From assembly GCA_041671305.1 (NCBI GenBank), contig JBAZBX010000001.1:40821-104820 (forward strand): a stretch of DNA of 64,000 bases. The letters are read 5' to 3'. Positions 6,726 through 11,477 of this stretch are shown piece after piece. The stretch is from Patescibacteria group bacterium. Its GTDB lineage: Bacteria > Patescibacteriota > Patescibacteriia > 2-01-FULL-39-33. A program made the position numbers and the translations under genes. Positions within the stretch are counted from its first letter, which is position 1. Each line of letters starts with the position of its first letter. The notes beneath the pieces were generated by a model. It made no database searches. It was not told the DNA's origin and saw nothing but the letters and a program-made list of their open reading frames with translations.

Positions 6726-6879
6726 AATTTATATTATAAAAACCCAAGGATCTTCTTAGGTTTGTCTCTGCATTACTGCAGTATAATAGCATATTTTATA
6801 TAATCTTGCAACCACAAATCCCTGAAGCCCTAGAATACGCTTAAAATTTAATTTCAAAAATAGCGTAAAAAAAAGAGGG

Positions 6880-7320
6880 CCCGACGCGATGATCTTGGAG
6901 GGTGATCGCGTCGGGCGGGAGTTGGGACTCCGAGGGGGTTAGGTACACGACAAATTGACAATAGCGAGGGGGTGCTGGAAGAGGGTGTTCCTCTCGCCAT
7001 TACACAACTCGTCGTGCAAAAAAACTTTTTTGGAGGAAGGTGGACCGAAAAACAGCAATCACTCCCTTTTCATGCTAGTCGTCACATCACGCGCATTGTA
7101 CACAAAAAATGACTAGCATGTCACCGAATCGGTGATGTGGCGGGTGTTGTACACCACAGGATGATTCAACTAAATTCCGTCCACCTTCCTCACTACATAT
7201 ATGGCCGCCCTTATCATCAATCAACCGTTCCAACCGTTCGTGTTTCACAGACATAAGGGTCGAGCCAAGCCTCTTGGGATGAGGCATTTGGGGCTAAAGA
7301 AAGAACGACTCTAAAACAAT
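6880..7320. ncRNA. GC-rich, highly structured, apparently non-coding segment (candidate structured RNA of unknown class)
   Basis: About 55% GC in an AT-rich genome with almost no ORF. Hairpin 6883-6918. Long-range 13-bp helix GGAGGAAGGTGGAC (7031-7044) / GTCCACCTTCCTC (7178-7190). Crossing helices 7071-7079/7110-7118 and 7082-7089/7131-7138 form a pseudoknot. Confidence 0.3.
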
Positions 7321-7774
7321 TACATTATATTAAAATTAGATATAAAAGTCAAGATTTATACAACAAAATCTTTTTATTTCATTTTAAAAGCTAATTTAGA
7401 AGGTTAATTAGGCCAGCTATATCAAATTAACGATTAGTGTGCTAAGATTAAACTCTAATTAAGAACCTACGGGGAAATGGTCGTGACCACGTATTAAGTC
7501 CAGAAATGGATACTACTAGATACCAAATACCATGACAGAAGATACAACAGAAGAAACAACAGAGGAAACTCCTGAAGTTGCTACAGAAGAAAAAACAACA
7601 GAGGAAGCCGCTTCATAGACAATGAAAACGAAGCAAAAAAAGAAAAAATCCCCACTAAACTAGTGAGGCTTTTTTCTTTTGGGTAGAGAACTGGCTGAGT
7701 GAAACAAAATTTTCAAATTTTTGAGTGAGCCAAATTTGGGCTGGACTTCGGCGCTAAGCGCCGGAAATTCCGAA

Positions 7775-7892
7775 TGGCTGGGTGTTTATGAACAAATCCG
7801 AACCGAATTTAAACAAAAATCATGATCGGGCGGGCGGAATCCCCCCCAAACCCCTCCTTCCGCCCGACCTAAACATCTGGACGGCTGAGGCG
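7775..7892. repeat. 118-bp inverted repeat, left copy (IR-L)
   Basis: 100% identical to the reverse complement of 9326..9443. Contains an internal TCGGGCGG...CCGCCCGA hairpin. Confidence 0.9.
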
Positions 7893-7904
7893 AAATAGCA
7901 ATTT

Positions 7905-8951
7905 TCAATTTTTCTTTGGCGGCGAATTTTTTTCTCCTTCTTTAACTATTTCCCTTACTTCATTGTAACTTATCTGCCTTGGCCATAATAGATTGCCGTG
8001 AGCATCATAAATTGGCAGAAGAAAATCAACCCGGTCTCCATAAATCTTTCTCATTAATGTAGCTATTTCATTTGCTTTATTTTGTTTGCTTTCATCATCA
8101 TCAACTTCTTTATACCTATGTATTTTTCTTAAAACTTCTTGTGGGACATATGGTTGTTTTTTATATAAATTATCCATTTCCTCCTCTGTCTGTTCTGCCA
8201 TGGCTCTTATTACAATACCCTTAAACCGGTCTGGAGCAATTCGAAAAGACAAAGCGTAGCCCTCAGAATAGTCAGGAATCCTTCTGTCTCCTTCTTCAAA
8301 ATATTCTTCTCTTTCTGATCCTGGTCTAGCATGGGCTCCGAAAGTATTACTTTTATACTGTAATTTTTCTCTTTTGCCAAGGTCATAATCCAATGCATAA
8401 TTGGCAATTTCAGTATTTTCCTTAAAATCTGCTGTATCAAAAATTATTCCCAAGGAGGTTTGGCTTGTTCCAATGGGTCTAAACCAATGGGCGTCTTCGA
8501 TTTTTCTTAAATCCCGACCAACAATATTGAAAAAAACAACGGCCCCCATTTTTTTTCTAACAGCGCTAACCCAATCTTGTTCAGGACTGTTAGGATTCAA
8601 TTTTCCTAATAAACCCTTTCGAAGTATACCGCCTAATTTAATGGTGGAATTATCATCTTCAAGTATTCTAACAGAATGAAATCCTGTCCCCGGTTTATTT
8701 ATATCTTGTATTTTTTCCATTATTCTCTCAACCACTTCAGGTAGTAGTTCGGGAGGAATAGGGATGTCGGAATTATCAATATTTTGATCTGCATTTTCCA
8801 CGTCCAAAATATCGCTTTCGACTTGATAATCATCAGGAGAAAAATCCTCACCCTTCTCAGGATATTTTTCTTTCAATTTTTCTTGTAGCCTTTGGGCTTC
8901 TTTTAGAGCGTCATCGTTGTTTAATCGACCGCTTTCAAATCTTTTTTCCAT
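7905..8951 (-). CDS. Hypothetical 348-aa protein (cargo of the IR-flanked cassette)
   Basis: Long ORF 5 nt downstream of the XRE HTH gene on the same strand. No recognizable domain. Confidence 0.55.
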   Translation of the reverse strand: MEKRFESGRLNNDDALKEAQRLQEKLKEKYPEKGEDFSPDDYQVESDILDVENADQNIDNSDIPIPPELLPEVVERIMEKIQDINKPGTGFHSVRILEDDNSTIKLGGILRKGLLGKLNPNSPEQDWVSAVRKKMGAVVFFNIVGRDLRKIEDAHWFRPIGTSQTSLGIIFDTADFKENTEIANYALDYDLGKREKLQYKSNTFGAHARPGSEREEYFEEGDRRIPDYSEGYALSFRIAPDRFKGIVIRAMAEQTEEEMDNLYKKQPYVPQEVLRKIHRYKEVDDDESKQNKANEIATLMRKIYGDRVDFLLPIYDAHGNLLWPRQISYNEVREIVKEGEKNSPPKKN

Positions 8952-8955
8952 AAAT

Positions 8956-9162
8956 TTATTTCAATAACTCCCACGCCTCCACTCCTAAAGCGTGAGCTAG
9001 TCTATTTAAATTTTCTAATGTGGGATTAACTTGACCACTCTCGACTCGACATATATAGGCGCGATCTATTTTACTAGAACGAAAAACATCGCCTTGCGTA
9101 AGACTTTTTTCCTCTCTTATTCTCTTGAAATTATACGCTAATTTTTTACTTAATTTATGCAT
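8956..9162 (-). CDS. XRE/Cro-C1-type helix-turn-helix transcriptional regulator
   Basis: LTQGDVFRSSKIDRAYICRVESGQVNPTLENLNRLAHALGV, a classic HTH_3 pattern; 68 aa. Confidence 0.75.
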   Translation of the reverse strand: MHKLSKKLAYNFKRIREEKSLTQGDVFRSSKIDRAYICRVESGQVNPTLENLNRLAHALGVEAWELLK

Positions 9163-9245
9163 AGTTATCCACAGTCATTTTAACAATTATTGTATATCTT
9201 AACAATATTGTAGTATACTACAATATGTAAGTGAAATTTTGCATT

Positions 9246-9272
9246 AAGAAAAAGAAAAAGTTTGATTCTGGC
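9246..9272. repeat. 27-bp inverted repeat IR2-a (partner 9533..9559)
   Basis: AAGAAAAAGAAAAAGTTTGATTCTGGC is the exact reverse complement of 9533-9559. Confidence 0.85.
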
Positions 9273-9302
9273 CAAAATAAAGTTCGAGCCGATTTTTTTA
9301 AT
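9273..9302. repeat. 30-bp inverted duplicate (B') of the recombinase 3' coding segment 10901..10930
   Basis: CAAAATAAAGTTCGAGCCGATTTTTTTAAT equals the reverse complement of 10901-10930. Confidence 0.85.
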
Positions 9303-9325
9303 CTGGTTCTTTGGCGGTTTTATTC

Positions 9326-9443
9326 CGCCTCAGCCGTCCAGATGTTTAGGTCGGGCGGAAGGAGGGGTTTGGGGGGGATTCCGCCCGCCCGATCATGATT
9401 TTTGTTTAAATTCGGTTCGGATTTGTTCATAAACACCCAGCCA
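9326..9443. repeat. 118-bp inverted repeat, right copy (IR-R)
   Basis: Reverse complement is identical to 7775..7892. The outer end CACCCAGCCA resembles the tRNA-Gln 3' end CCCGCAGCCA. Confidence 0.9.
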
Positions 9444-9512
9444 GTTTCGTTTTTCATTTTTTAAAACCGAATCCCAACCGTTTTTTGGCTTAAATTCAAA
9501 TTTTTTGCCTTG
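9441..9512. repeat. 72-bp inverted duplicate (A') of the tRNA-Gln 3' end plus downstream flank (10931..11002)
   Basis: The reverse complement of 10931-10999 is identical to 9444-9512, and the CCA is also shared. Confidence 0.85.
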
Positions 9513-9532
9513 GTTCCGATTACAATCGGAAC
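9513..9532. promoter_or_regulatory. 20-bp perfect dyad site GTTCCGATT-AC-AATCGGAAC (candidate recombinase crossover site or HTH operator)
   Basis: Perfect 9-bp arms around a non-palindromic AC dinucleotide, 40 bp upstream of the serine recombinase start. Confidence 0.35.
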
Positions 9533-9559
9533 GCCAGAATCAAACTTTTTCTTTTTCTT
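9533..9559. repeat. 27-bp inverted repeat IR2-b
   Basis: Reverse complement of 9246-9272. Confidence 0.85.
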
Positions 9560-9574
9560 TAATTCAATACAAAT

Positions 9575-11062
9575 ATGAAATACTTTCTTTATGCCCGCAA
9601 GTCGACAGACGAAGAGGATCGTCAAGTTCTTTCAATTGAAGCCCAGCTCGCGGAGTTGAAGGAGTTAGCCGCCAAAGAAAAATTGGAAATTGCGGACTCG
9701 CTCTGCGAGTCCAAAACCGCCAAAGAACCAGGCCGAAAAATTTTCGGCGGAATGCTCGCTCGGATTGAAAAAGGTGAGGCCGACGGAATTTTAGCGTGGC
9801 ACCCAGATAGATTGGCCAGAAATAGCGTTGATGGTGGAAAAATTATCTACATGGTGGATATCGGCCAGATCAAAACGCTAAAATTCCCGACTTTTTGGTT
9901 TGAGAATACTCCGCAAGGGAAATTCATGCTCAATATCGCTTTCGGCCAAAGCAAATACTATGTTGATAATTTAAGCGAAAATGTTAAACGTGGTTTCAGG
10001 CAAAAGTTAAGGCGCGGCGAATATCCCAATAAAGCGCCCATCGGCTATCTTAACGACCGAACAGCTAAAACCGTGCTCATTGATCCTCTGCGCGCCAAGC
10101 TCGTGATAAAGATGTTTAAGATGTACAACACGGGAGAATTTTCGCTTAAATTTCTTAAAGATAAGTTTTGCGATATTGGCCTGACCAGCAAGCGCGGCAA
10201 AATCCTGACTGTCGGCATGATTTCTAACATATTGAATAATCCCTTTTATTGCGGAGTATTCAAGTTTAATGGCGAAATCTACCAAGGCAAGTACGAGCCA
10301 ATTATTTCCAAGAAGCTTTTTGATGAAGTTCAGGCGGTAATGAAAAACCGAGGACGGCCGCTCGGGCAAGACAAACACGATTATGCTTTTACTGGACTTA
10401 TGAAATGCAAGTGCGGCGCCTGCATTACCGCCGAACGGCAAAAAGGCCATATCTATTATCGCTGTACGAAAAAGCTTGGAGCCTGCGACGAAAAGTATAT
10501 CCGCGAAGAAAAACTGCTGGAGCAATTCCATGGCCTTTTTCAAAAAGTTTCTTTGCCAGATGACTGGATTGACAAGATGCTCGCTAAACTCGATGAGGAA
10601 CAAAAAAGCGACATGAAGTCATCGGTAGGTCTGATTGACGAGGTAAAAACGCAAATAGGAGCCATAGAGAGCAAGCTAGATAAGTTGCTCGATGATCGAT
10701 TAGAAGGATTACTCGATAAGGACGACTATTTGCGGAAGAAGGAACAACTCATCAATCAGAAAATTGCTTTTGAGGAGAAAATCCAGTCAATCAGGCAAAC
10801 GGGAAATAATTGGCTCGAACCGATGCGGGAATTCCTTTCCGCCAATAAACAAACCAAAAAAGTCGCCAATAGCGGCGACATTCTGGAAATCCGAGCATTC
10901 ATTAAAAAAATCGGCTCGAACTTTATTTTGCAAGGCAAAAAATTTGAATTTAAGCCAAAAAACGGTTGGGATTCGGTTTTAAAAAATGAAAAACGAAACT
11001 GGCTGCGGGACCTGGAGTCGAACCAAGATAACAGCTTTCAGAGAGCTGCGTCCTACCATTAG
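9575..11062 (+). CDS. Large serine recombinase (resolvase/invertase catalytic domain, recombinase domain and zinc-ribbon)
   Basis: YARKST catalytic-serine motif near the N-terminus; CKCGACITAERQKGHIYYRC zinc ribbon; 495 aa. The last ~20 codons are antisense to tRNA-Gln. Confidence 0.9.
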   Translation: MKYFLYARKSTDEEDRQVLSIEAQLAELKELAAKEKLEIADSLCESKTAKEPGRKIFGGMLARIEKGEADGILAWHPDRLARNSVDGGKIIYMVDIGQIKTLKFPTFWFENTPQGKFMLNIAFGQSKYYVDNLSENVKRGFRQKLRRGEYPNKAPIGYLNDRTAKTVLIDPLRAKLVIKMFKMYNTGEFSLKFLKDKFCDIGLTSKRGKILTVGMISNILNNPFYCGVFKFNGEIYQGKYEPIISKKLFDEVQAVMKNRGRPLGQDKHDYAFTGLMKCKCGACITAERQKGHIYYRCTKKLGACDEKYIREEKLLEQFHGLFQKVSLPDDWIDKMLAKLDEEQKSDMKSSVGLIDEVKTQIGAIESKLDKLLDDRLEGLLDKDDYLRKKEQLINQKIAFEEKIQSIRQTGNNWLEPMREFLSANKQTKKVANSGDILEIRAFIKKIGSNFILQGKKFEFKPKNGWDSVLKNEKRNWLRDLESNQDNSFQRAASYH

Positions 11063-11073
11063 ACGATCCCGCA
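11000..11073 (-). tRNA. tRNA-Gln (anticodon CUG)
   Basis: Manual fold gives U1-A72 acceptor pair, U8, D-stem GTCT/GGAC, anticodon loop CTCTGAA with U33 and A37, T-loop TTCGACT, discriminator G and an encoded CCA. Confidence 0.8.
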
Positions 11074-11098
11074 TTATATTAATTCATTAATCTTCTTT

Positions 11099-11353
11099 TT
11101 AAATATGCTCTTCCAAAACCAGTCTTAAGCTGTTTTTCCCTTTCAATTCAATAGCGTTTTGTTTACTTAAACACGCCTCATAATATACCAACTCGAGTGG
11201 TTGCCTTTCCTTTGTTGAATTTACTTGTCCACTATTATGCAAATAAATCCTTTTTCTTAAATCTTGAGTAAATCCAATATAATATCTTTCATCCGCCAAA
11301 CTCTTTAACACATAAGTGTAATAAAATTGCATATATCTATTAAACCTATCCAT
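11099..11353 (-). CDS. GIY-YIG nuclease-family protein (UPF0213-like)
   Basis: YYTYVLKS...YYIGFTQDLRKRIYLHNSG...LVYYE. The longest ORF extends to 11404 through a GC-rich palindromic stretch, so the start is uncertain. Confidence 0.65.
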   Translation of the reverse strand: MDRFNRYMQFYYTYVLKSLADERYYIGFTQDLRKRIYLHNSGQVNSTKERQPLELVYYEACLSKQNAIELKGKNSLRLVLEEHI

Positions 11354-11477
11354 TGGACGACCCGCCTGCAACGCTTTGCGTAGCAATGCGGGCAGGTCCC
11401 GCAAAATAATTTAATCCAAAAAAGCACTATAGTGCTTTCTATAAATTAACAAAAAATAGCAAAAAAATCAAGTGAGA

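Follow-up and report, generated by a model that had tools for sequence, protein, structure and literature searches.

A two-gene cassette between long inverted repeats in a Patescibacteria genome is probably the cargo module of a tRNA-associated serine-integrase element

In Hin/Gin-type systems, invertases of ~190 aa (or the tyrosine recombinase Rci) act at crossover sites of 19-34 bp, and inversion switches promoters or gene ends. Elements of the staphylococcal cassette chromosome (SCC) type target rlmH, usually encode two recombinases, and have short direct or inverted end repeats; to our knowledge, neither an internal inverted copy of the attachment site attP, tRNA mimicry, nor repeats bracketing the recombinase gene have been described for SCC. 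According to the published rules for serine integrases, attP pairs only with attB, and, in the serine integrase studied by Rutherford et al. (2013, PMC3783163), the motif of the zinc-ribbon domain lies at bp 16-24 of the attP half-site and at bp 11-19 of the attB half-site, a shift of 5 bp. Among the tycheposons, 910 of 937 use tyrosine recombinases, the remaining ones employing a large serine recombinase (LSR) (bioRxiv 10.1101/2020.12.28.424599). In this study, we analyzed a 64,000-nt stretch of a Patescibacteria metagenome-assembled genome (MAG; contig JBAZBX010000001.1), hereafter called the window, in which a 1.43-kb cassette of two genes lies between long inverted repeats next to an LSR gene. 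A preliminary description of this locus had considered an invertible segment, as in phase variation and shufflons, or a recent mobile insertion. Our results suggest that the cassette is probably the cargo module of an integrative element of ~3.2 kb (7775 to ~11002), inserted by the LSR at the 3' end of tRNA-Gln(CUG).

We refer to the repeat as U in the sense in which it is read at 9321-9443, and to its copy at 7775-7897 as U'. A repeat search of the window gave arms of 123 nt each, which are 99% complementary and enclose an interior of 1423 nt. As the single mismatch falls at 7893/9325, positions 7775-7892 and 9326-9443 are exact reverse complements (118/118), in agreement with the preliminary description. 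The other structural features that it listed were also found: the arms are GC-rich (52-53% G+C, as compared with 35% in the interior and 39% in the window) and both contain a GGGCGG...CCGCCC hairpin; open reading frame (ORF) and domain analyses identified a helix-turn-helix (HTH) gene and a 348-aa ORF on the minus strand between them; and a 495-aa serine recombinase gene starts at 9575, 131 nt past the right arm. A 46-nt core of the arm occurred in two exact copies in the window, versus none expected (100 shuffles). When this core was searched for elsewhere, exact matches in the JGI metagenome collection were confined to a single contig (L001; 1850 nt, 99.9% identical), an independent sequence corresponding to window positions 9338..7489. 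Since L001 spans the entire left arm, its outer junction, and the interior, these are not peculiar to one assembly. No Rfam match was obtained in either arm, at the gathering threshold or at E<=5, and ARAGORN called no tRNA other than tRNA-Gln.

A further contig, L002, which comes from another sample, is informative about the nature of the repeats. Its cassette and U' are 100% identical to those of the window over 1378 nt, and after ...CACCCAG there follows an unrelated, terminator-like flank that does not occur in the window. The same cassette thus adjoins different flanks in different samples, in keeping with the earlier suggestion of a mobile insertion. A DDE transposon or insertion sequence is not indicated, since ORF and domain scans gave no transposase and the sequences outside the arms, ...AATTCCGAA and GTTTCGTTT..., do not repeat each other directly.

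The recombinase contains the domains Resolvase (PF00239, E=3.6e-19, residues 4-149), Recombinase (PF07508, E=2.4e-13) and Zn_ribbon_recom (PF13408, E=3.6e-7), and matches PHROG 95 'integrase' (E=6.5e-78). In an alignment of 16 family members (A1), R8, K9 and S10, including the catalytic serine, are invariant. A catalytic N-terminus, the Recombinase and zinc-ribbon domains, and a length within ~450-600 aa are the features of an LSR. The protein is remote from characterized members: the best-scoring curated model, CcrB, and XisF were far below their cut-offs, and a PDB search gave an N-terminal match only. We found at least 7988 relatives at E<1e-30 and at least 582 confirmed recombinase loci among the GTDB species representatives (one-genome-per-species contigs), mostly in Patescibacteria, with some binned as Marinimicrobia, Ignavibacteriota, Margulisiibacteriota and others; 80 of these loci were fetched and served as the base of the family survey. 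Only 2 true relatives were present among the 2.9 million viral contigs of IMG/VR, and this near-absence argues that the enzyme is not a prophage integrase.

In 56 of the 80 loci, a tRNA gene on the opposite strand overlaps or abuts the 3' end of the recombinase ORF, and in 3 loci it lies at the 5' end. The target tRNAs are of 13 types (Gln, Ser, Asn, Trp, Arg, Gly, Glu, Leu, His, Pro, Tyr, Ala and Phe). The synteny of tRNA-Gln and dnaX in the window is kept in the relative L011. The TGG at 11000-11002, read as a tryptophan codon by the recombinase ORF, is the antisense of CCA, and the last ~20 recombinase codons are antisense tRNA sequence, as seen in 10931-11062 and in alignment A1. Because the ORF reads antisense into the T-arm of the tRNA, the family has a conserved C-terminal tail, ...W(L/R)R..(D/E)SN(P/Q), and the conservation of this tail and of the W codon is therefore one of the DNA rather than of the protein. 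We also considered 10931-10999 as the native downstream flank of the tRNA; this was dropped, as the protein alignment identified it as coding sequence conserved across the family.

Besides U'/U, the window has a second perfect inverted pair of 75 nt (9438-9512 / 10931-11005; hereafter TIR or p2), which brackets the recombinase gene. Its left arm begins 6 nt inside U and its right arm ends 6 nt inside tRNA-Gln(CUG), so that the U'/U and TIR pairs come together at a single place, next to a ...CAGCCA end resembling that of a tRNA. This architecture recurs in the relatives, with the general map flank, U', cargo, U joined to TIR-L, recombinase, TIR-R, tRNA. A repeat bracketing the recombinase was detected in 61 of the 80 loci (45-160 nt; 100% identical in 34). 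The other pair, which encloses 0.8-5.5 kb upstream of the recombinase, was found in 28 loci and in the window, making 29 in unrelated uncultured bacteria, mostly Patescibacteria; its arms measure 64-289 nt (typically 90-146) and are mostly 99-100% identical. Of the 25 loci in which this could be measured, 21 have an overlap of only 3-7 nt between the outer ends of the two repeat systems. One subtype, termed simple, has both pairs without the short additional pieces described below; here, the inner boundary of TIR lies exactly at a GTTCG[AG] motif, within the invariant codons for GSNF. It was also observed that the invariant GSNF motif (GGC TCG AAC) is at the same time a T-loop-like TCGAAC sequence. 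In L060 (2497-5829; Ignavibacteriota, on a contig of 1.8 Mb), a perfect U'/U pair of 136 nt encloses enolase and CrcB-like genes rather than defence genes, representing either captured host genes or an inverted chromosomal segment. In these organisms, contig breaks tend to fall at the repeats.

Across loci, the last ~35 nt of U follow the pattern ...AAATnnGTTCGRAtttttTCAAnnAnACnCnGCCA. This resembles the part of a tRNA from the T-loop to CCA, and we therefore read U as a tRNA mimic; in the window, U ends ...ACACCCAGCCA and the tRNA ends ...CCCGCAGCCA. The distance from the start of GTTCGRA to the junction is 21-23 nt in U as compared with 16-18 nt in the adjacent tRNA, and the offset between the two is exactly +5 nt in all 40 loci in which both motifs could be located. 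The two U copies of L025, L022 and L028 diverge just before CCA. Since identity ends there in these loci and in L002, the crossover is placed just before CCA, with putative crossover dinucleotides at 7778-7779 (U'), 9439-9440 (AG, in U) and 11003-11004 (TIR-R). With the crossover at this AG, the motif occupies positions 18-24 in U and 13-19 in the tRNA. GTTCGRA may accordingly be the contact of the zinc-ribbon domain, and the geometry suggests that U is the element-borne P'-type arm, the tRNA end the host B'-type arm, and the recombinase 3' end (TIR-R) the P arm. Within 7600-11200, the T-loop-like motif GTTCG[AG] shows a six-fold enrichment, with occurrences in U, U', the pieces p1 and p1', both halves of a short palindrome (pal), and the tRNA. 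A symmetric site centred after CCA (TTCGG / CCGAA at +/-24-28) was rejected, as it conflicts with L002, L025, L022 and L028, in which identity to U ends before CCA.

By its domain content and site geometry, the locus appears to be a serine-integrase integrative element, with an insertion beside a conserved host tRNA and 5 nt more in the element half-site than in the host half-site. In the model that we propose, the recombinase gene would itself supply the P arm through its 3' end (TIR-R/p2), the final TGG of which is antisense to CCA, the P' arm would be U, which mimics the T-loop and acceptor end of the tRNA but is 5 bp longer, and the crossover would occur at the two nucleotides preceding CCA. 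Each element would carry the attP region twice, in inverted orientation. Integration would have split one copy, with U' going to the left end (attL side) and p2 abutting the tRNA (attR), and the other copy (U joined to p2', 9321-9512) would lie intact between cargo and recombinase, as the junction that both ends would form on excision. Two inverted attP copies, one of them split, would leave the cargo bracketed by U'/U and the recombinase by p2'/p2, with both systems meeting at one point. The excised form would be a circle with two inverted attP copies, one of which is opened by integration, and the arms may be kept identical by gene conversion or homologous recombination, which would also flip each module without damage to its ORFs. 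The empty site is expected to read ...GGAAATTCCGAA, or the terminator flank of the L002 type, directly before the antisense of tRNA-Gln, TGGCTGCGGGACC.... Candidate roles of the second attP copy, which we do not rank, are integration through either copy, an operator or insulator (as res in Tn3) separating the divergently transcribed cargo and recombinase genes, and a platform for cassette exchange; the 3 loci with the tRNA on the 5' side bear on the first of these. The coordinates of the features are collected in Table 1.

Table 1. Features of the putative element and its immediate surroundings in the window.
Feature	Position	Strand	Description
'a'	7715..7774	+	Decayed recombinase 3'-end fragment abutting U'; candidate P-arm relic left by an earlier or different copy of the element
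U'	7775..7897	-	Putative P'-type attachment-site arm (tRNA 3'-half mimic) with GC-rich hairpin; left element end, attL side
k1'	7898..7926	-	End of 348-aa ORF; left boundary of exchangeable cargo
348-aa cargo gene	7905..8951	-	DarT/Tpt1-like fold, ADP-ribosyltransferase superfamily (predicted)
Xre-type HTH regulator, 68 aa	8956..9162	-	HTH_3 E=8e-11; PADLOC Control_protein E=2.5e-11
Divergent promoter/operator-like region	9163..9245	.	16-bp palindrome TTGTAGTATACTACAA at 9208-9223
Scaffold m (9246-9272), p1' (9273-9302), k2' (9303-9320)	9246..9320	-	Inverted recombinase-module copies
U	9321..9443	+	Right repeat arm; with 9438-9512, putative intact inverted attP-like site
TIR-L (p2')	9438..9512	-	Exact inverted repeat of the 75 nt preceding the tRNA junction, where the recombinase C-terminus is encoded
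pal	9513..9532	.	Palindrome GTTCCGATT-AC-AATCGGAAC; two T-loop-like motifs
m'	9533..9559	+	Immediately upstream of recombinase start codon; inverted copy at 9246-9272
Large serine recombinase, 495 aa	9575..11062	+	ORF through TIR-R, then antisense into tRNA-Gln
TIR-R (p2)	10931..11005	+	Putative P arm of attachment site; tRNA junction (attR)
tRNA-Gln(CUG)	11000..11073	-	Putative integration target, B'-type half-site; ARAGORN, Rfam tRNA 58 bits

When compared with the phage and integrative and conjugative element (ICE) integrases (A118/LI, Bxb1, phiC31, SPbeta SprA), the locus shares the domain set, the distinction between element and host site, an integrase gene beside the attachment site, and a motif whose distance from the crossover is 5 bp less in the host half-site than in that of the element. 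It differs from them in its remote sequence, near-absence from viral contigs, targeting of a tRNA 3' end with an ORF that runs into the tRNA, duplication of the attP region in inverted orientation as perfect repeats of 75-160 nt and 90-146 nt, and lack of a recognized directionality factor. With SCCmec/Ccr elements it has in common a small, non-phage element moved by an LSR, the 3' end of a conserved gene as target, and accessory or defence cargo. Tycheposons and other tRNA-integrating islands are likewise small cargo-carrying elements at tRNA genes; tycheposons, however, were defined in Prochlorococcus and have direct partial-tRNA repeats at their flanks, whereas the present locus has no direct tRNA repeat, an inverted tRNA mimic with +5 bp instead, and perfect inverted repeats around both modules. 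The Hin, Gin, Cin and Pin segments and the shufflons resemble it in having a serine recombinase gene beside a segment bounded by inverted repeats, and in the occurrence of both orientations among relatives, but the recombinase studied here is an integrase-type protein of 495 aa, the ORFs of the cassette are complete, and the arms are non-coding on the cargo side. If the proposed circle is right, there is also a likeness to the yeast 2-micron plasmid (Flp/FRT) and to isomerization at plastid-type inverted repeats, with two unique segments between identical, homogenized inverted repeats that bear a recombination site, and with both isomers present. This is an analogy only, as Flp is a tyrosine and the present enzyme a serine recombinase, replication functions are absent here, and isomerization is putative. 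Taken together, these comparisons indicate that the element works most like the cargo islands of the SCC or tycheposon type, and that its likeness to Hin/Gin is superficial.

The preliminary description had taken the perfect identity of the repeats to mean ongoing recombination or gene conversion, and our comparisons of the relatives agree with this. In five related elements compared over 75 positions, TIR-L and TIR-R showed no differences within each element and 1-21 differences between elements. Similarly, the 20-nt piece k2 (see below) agrees fully with the recombinase gene of its own element in each of 16 loci, among which 13 distinct sequences occur. Since the arms and k2 follow their own element, the copies must be homogenized or regenerated quickly; in some loci the repeats are decaying, with identities of 83-94%.

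As to orientation, the three independent contigs that cross the left arm (the window, L001 and L002) agree with each other. Some relatives carry the modules in the other relative orientation. In L014, the order is tRNA, recombinase, p2 joined to the reverse complement of U, k2, p1, m' and HTH, with recombinase and cargo co-directional. In L079 (4050-7455), U' is followed by k2, p1, m' and the cargo (HTH, 243-aa and 231-aa genes), fused at k1 to a recombinase without its first ~29 residues, with which the catalytic serine is lost; this looks like an element immobilized by a deletion between direct k1 copies in a flipped isomer. L093 (6724-8529) and L098 (1809-3527), with recombinase P0116 and from two samples of one project, are 100% identical apart from a segment of 1420 bp, which is inverted and flanked by perfect repeats of 193 bp beginning 5 nt inside TIR-R. 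This difference is only suggestive, since it may be a real inversion or a choice of path by the assembler (the repeat exceeds the k-mer, and 7 sibling contigs stop inside the arm). With a p2 copy at either end of the recombinase body, the ORF remains intact after flipping; its fusion to U' would give the ending ...NWLGVYEQIRTEFKQKS. In our view, flipping through homologous recombination together with gene conversion is likely, and catalysis by the recombinase itself is possible but would go against the canonical attP/attB pairing rules. The notion of an invertible segment is supported insofar as modules occur in both orientations among relatives, but a phase-variation or shufflon function is unsupported.

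Short additional inverted pairs, which we call scaffold pieces, link the cassette to the recombinase module. Two are perfect: 9273-9302 / 10901-10930 (30 nt; p1' corresponds to recombinase nt 1327-1356) and 9246-9272 / 9533-9559 (27 nt; m/m', the region just upstream of the recombinase start codon). The pair 7898-7926 / 9665-9693 matches at 27 of 29 positions (k1' is recombinase nt 91-119) and 9303-9321 / 9713-9731 at 19 of 19 (k2' is recombinase nt 139-157). Pieces with the same boundaries were found at the same places in more than 15 other divergent loci, and a short palindrome follows TIR-L in other loci too. On the minus strand, the cassette reads reverse complement of U, k2, p1, m', cargo, k1 and U, and thus the pieces resemble a recombinase module that has undergone circular permutation and internal deletion and in which cargo has taken the place of the 5' end. 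The permutation opens between k1 and k2, where the recombinase gene has the palindrome TCGCTTTGCGA, and the innermost 19 nt of U are similar to the k1-k2 spacer (11/19). The regularities of the scaffold suggest secondary recombination sites or a copying step; no mechanism that we derived fits all junctions. Outside U', a sensitive BLAST search aligned 7715-7897 with the reverse complement of 9321-9503 at 85%. The decayed fragment 'a' contained in this match is similar to the TIR of the relative L012 and missing from L002, which has the same cassette; we read it as a possible relic of an earlier insertion at the same tRNA. As a separate observation, a hypothetical loss of 9273-9512 would join 9246-9272, 9513-9532 and 9533-9559 into a perfect 74-bp palindrome (m, pal, m'), which would separate the divergent HTH/cargo operon from the recombinase gene.

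Several observations weigh against the proposed model. The left junction in the window and in L012 joins a decayed recombinase 3' end, not host sequence, to U', so that an older insertion or an attP-like left copy is needed, and the clean left boundary rests on L002 and other loci rather than on the window. Neither an empty attB nor an excised-circle junction was retrieved by the 46-nt JGI search and exact-protein look-ups; the look-ups, made with the recombinase and the neighbouring ABC-F gene for element-free strain variants, returned nothing. Domain and PADLOC scans revealed no recognizable directionality factor, the HTH protein being a candidate regulator only. Canonical serine-integrase elements have a single attP, as opposed to two inverted copies, and the P arm shows, on reading the sequences, no symmetric GTTCGRA at the P-type distance. 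RNA folding of U was no better than that of shuffles (z -1.2 and +0.5). Finally, a simple model with two attP copies does not predict scaffold pieces that match the recombinase gene of their own element exactly, down to a length of 20 nt, and ordinary RecA-mediated gene conversion explains such identity poorly.

The alternative that survives best is a programmed invertible switch, in which the recombinase would flip the cassette, and its own gene, to vary the expression of cargo or recombinase, for example by turning the recombinase sense or antisense to transcription from the tRNA promoter. Perfect long inverted repeats directly beside a serine recombinase, the concerted evolution of the arms, the inverted segment of L093/L098, the opposite relative orientation of recombinase and cargo in L014 and L079, and a recombinase ORF that is intact either way would be in keeping with such a switch. 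We nevertheless consider it unlikely. The enzyme is an integrase-type LSR of ~500 aa tied to tRNA ends, of a kind that pairs attP only with attB (PMC3783163), rather than a Hin/Gin-type invertase, and the arms are better explained as copies of attachment-site arms than as inversion crossover sites. The idea that flipping couples the operon to, or uncouples it from, outside promoters is not supported either, as the cassette has its own promoter-like region and complete ORFs, and flipping makes or breaks no fusion. Moreover, the window, L001 and L002 have the same orientation at the left arm, the tRNA is found at the recombinase 3' end in 56 loci versus at the 5' end in 3, and the arrangement of L093/L098 could be an arbitrary assembler path.

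Less probable still is a static scar of nested insertions, in which the cargo module would be a defective, circularly permuted recombinase-module copy, with the recombinase replaced by cargo, inserted in inverted orientation beside an active copy, and the repeats would have no present role. The minus-strand flanks do correspond to a rotated, internally deleted recombinase module, a third, decayed copy of the recombinase 3' end is present at 7715-7774, and L079 illustrates that deletion between pieces can remove the recombinase N-terminus. However, an ancient leftover would have decayed, whereas the same pieces, with the same boundaries and matching the own recombinase gene, are found in elements whose proteins are 50-65% identical; U'/U and TIR pairs are, in addition, present in the simple subtype without the pieces. 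An assembly artefact, that is, a collapsed or chimeric repeat, which the preliminary description had named as a possible refutation, is extremely improbable: although the window comes from a MAG and several contigs of related elements break inside repeats, L001 independently reproduces 7489-9338 at 99.9%, unrelated assemblies have the layout at 29 loci, some of which lie on contigs of 0.77-1.8 Mb, and the 123-nt arm is shorter than k=141 and than typical reads.

Two further mechanisms were considered and rejected. A folded single-stranded attP, in the style of CTX phage or the integron attC, was discarded on mechanism, as a serine recombinase would cut such a stem in both strands and thereby produce chromosome ends capped by hairpins. 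Head-to-head dimer integration, or recombination between two circles in the wrong alignment, would be expected to produce U/U' and p2/p2' junctions, which were not observed. As for the integrative element itself, one may go further and suppose that the family represents a new usage of LSRs, in which two inverted, actively homogenized attP copies make cargo and recombinase flippable and exchangeable modules, forming a defence-gene 'cargo bay' at tRNA genes, and in which the recombinase or a coupled copying step regenerates repeats and scaffold in each cycle and mediates inversion or cassette swapping. We regard this extension as speculative and rather doubtful. A full-text literature search found this architecture described nowhere, although such silence is no proof of novelty.

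The cargo itself appears exchangeable. L012, the backbone of which is ~88% identical, has the same flanks as the window ('a', U' and k1' on one side, and m, p1', k2' and U on the other) around 3.9 kb of different genes in place of 1.3 kb; homology breaks at 7932 and 9243, that is, the swap lies between k1' and m. Pfam analysis of 46 cargo ORFs from 25 loci gave 8 DNA methyltransferase matches, together with NgoPII, Mrr, GmrSD, ResIII, Eco57I, HNH, RelA_SpoT, Schlafen and SNF2 helicase, and where the second U copy of a locus lies beyond the fetched flank, this position is occupied by restriction-modification genes of types I, III and IIG. These data suggest that the cargo of the relatives consists mostly of restriction-modification and defence genes. 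Homologues of the HTH protein occupy the same position, always at the recombinase-proximal end of the cargo, in seven loci (L020, L022, L025, L026, L028, L035 and L088), and the HTH gene thus appears to be a conserved backbone gene of this element subtype. In L020, it precedes an NgoPII-type endonuclease and a C5 methyltransferase. A C-protein-like HTH gene upstream of an effector gene, as in restriction-modification control units, is also the arrangement in the window, the cassette of which contained neither a methyltransferase nor a restriction endonuclease in ORF and domain scans. Promoter-like hexamers, which are consensus matches only, lie on the minus strand at 9235-9207 and 9205-9177.

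The predicted fold of the 348-aa protein is in keeping with membership in the ADP-ribosyltransferase superfamily, but does not establish a function. Its family is unannotated (781 representatives at 50% clustering), with no Pfam match in 76 members, and a Foldseek search with a first, low-confidence model was uninformative. The DarG macrodomain antitoxin that a DarTG system would have was not found adjacent to it by ORF and domain scans, the sole partner being the 68-aa HTH protein. A relative with 30% identity resides in a conserved khpA-trmD-X-ftsW-murG-murC neighbourhood in Moranbacteria, and owing to this housekeeping context the label 'toxin' is not assured. The cargo of the window may be a self-regulated accessory unit, possibly for defence or a toxin.

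Some neighbouring features were also noted. A GC-rich, ORF-free stretch of ~430 nt beside the ABC-F gene (6868-7300) folds far better than shuffles (z=-5.0 on the plus strand and z=-7.7 on the minus strand) and is a candidate unclassified structured RNA, with no Rfam match even at E<=5; it includes a part that is 71% similar to the repeat-arm hairpin. At 7531-7680, a small ORF ends in tandem imperfect repeats of 12/39 nt, whose product is an acidic, T/E-rich peptide; they are followed by a terminator-like hairpin at 7638-7680, which is strong and bidirectional. An ORF of 101 aa with a GIY-YIG nuclease domain (11099-11404) directly adjoins tRNA-Gln on its 5' side and separates it from dnaX. As the interval between tRNA-Gln and dnaX is ~125 nt shorter in L011, this gene may be another small insertion.

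If the model holds, these loci represent an abundant family of small mobile elements in Patescibacteria (candidate phyla radiation, CPR) and other uncultured bacteria, with at least 582 loci and thousands of protein clusters. CPR lineages have tiny genomes and poorly known routes of gene exchange, and the elements appear to spread restriction-modification and other defence genes among them. A tRNA mimic with exactly 5 extra bp would confirm, in nature and across a whole family, the half-site rule for attP and attB that had come from one crystal structure, and the tRNA ends would provide ready-made attP/attB pairs for dozens of divergent integrases, which could serve genome engineering. For annotation, the conserved C-terminal tail of these recombinases would be recorded as antisense tRNA sequence. 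The double inverted attP, together with the exact co-evolution of 20-nt pieces, would point to a step in the life cycle of these elements that lies outside the current models of serine integrases.

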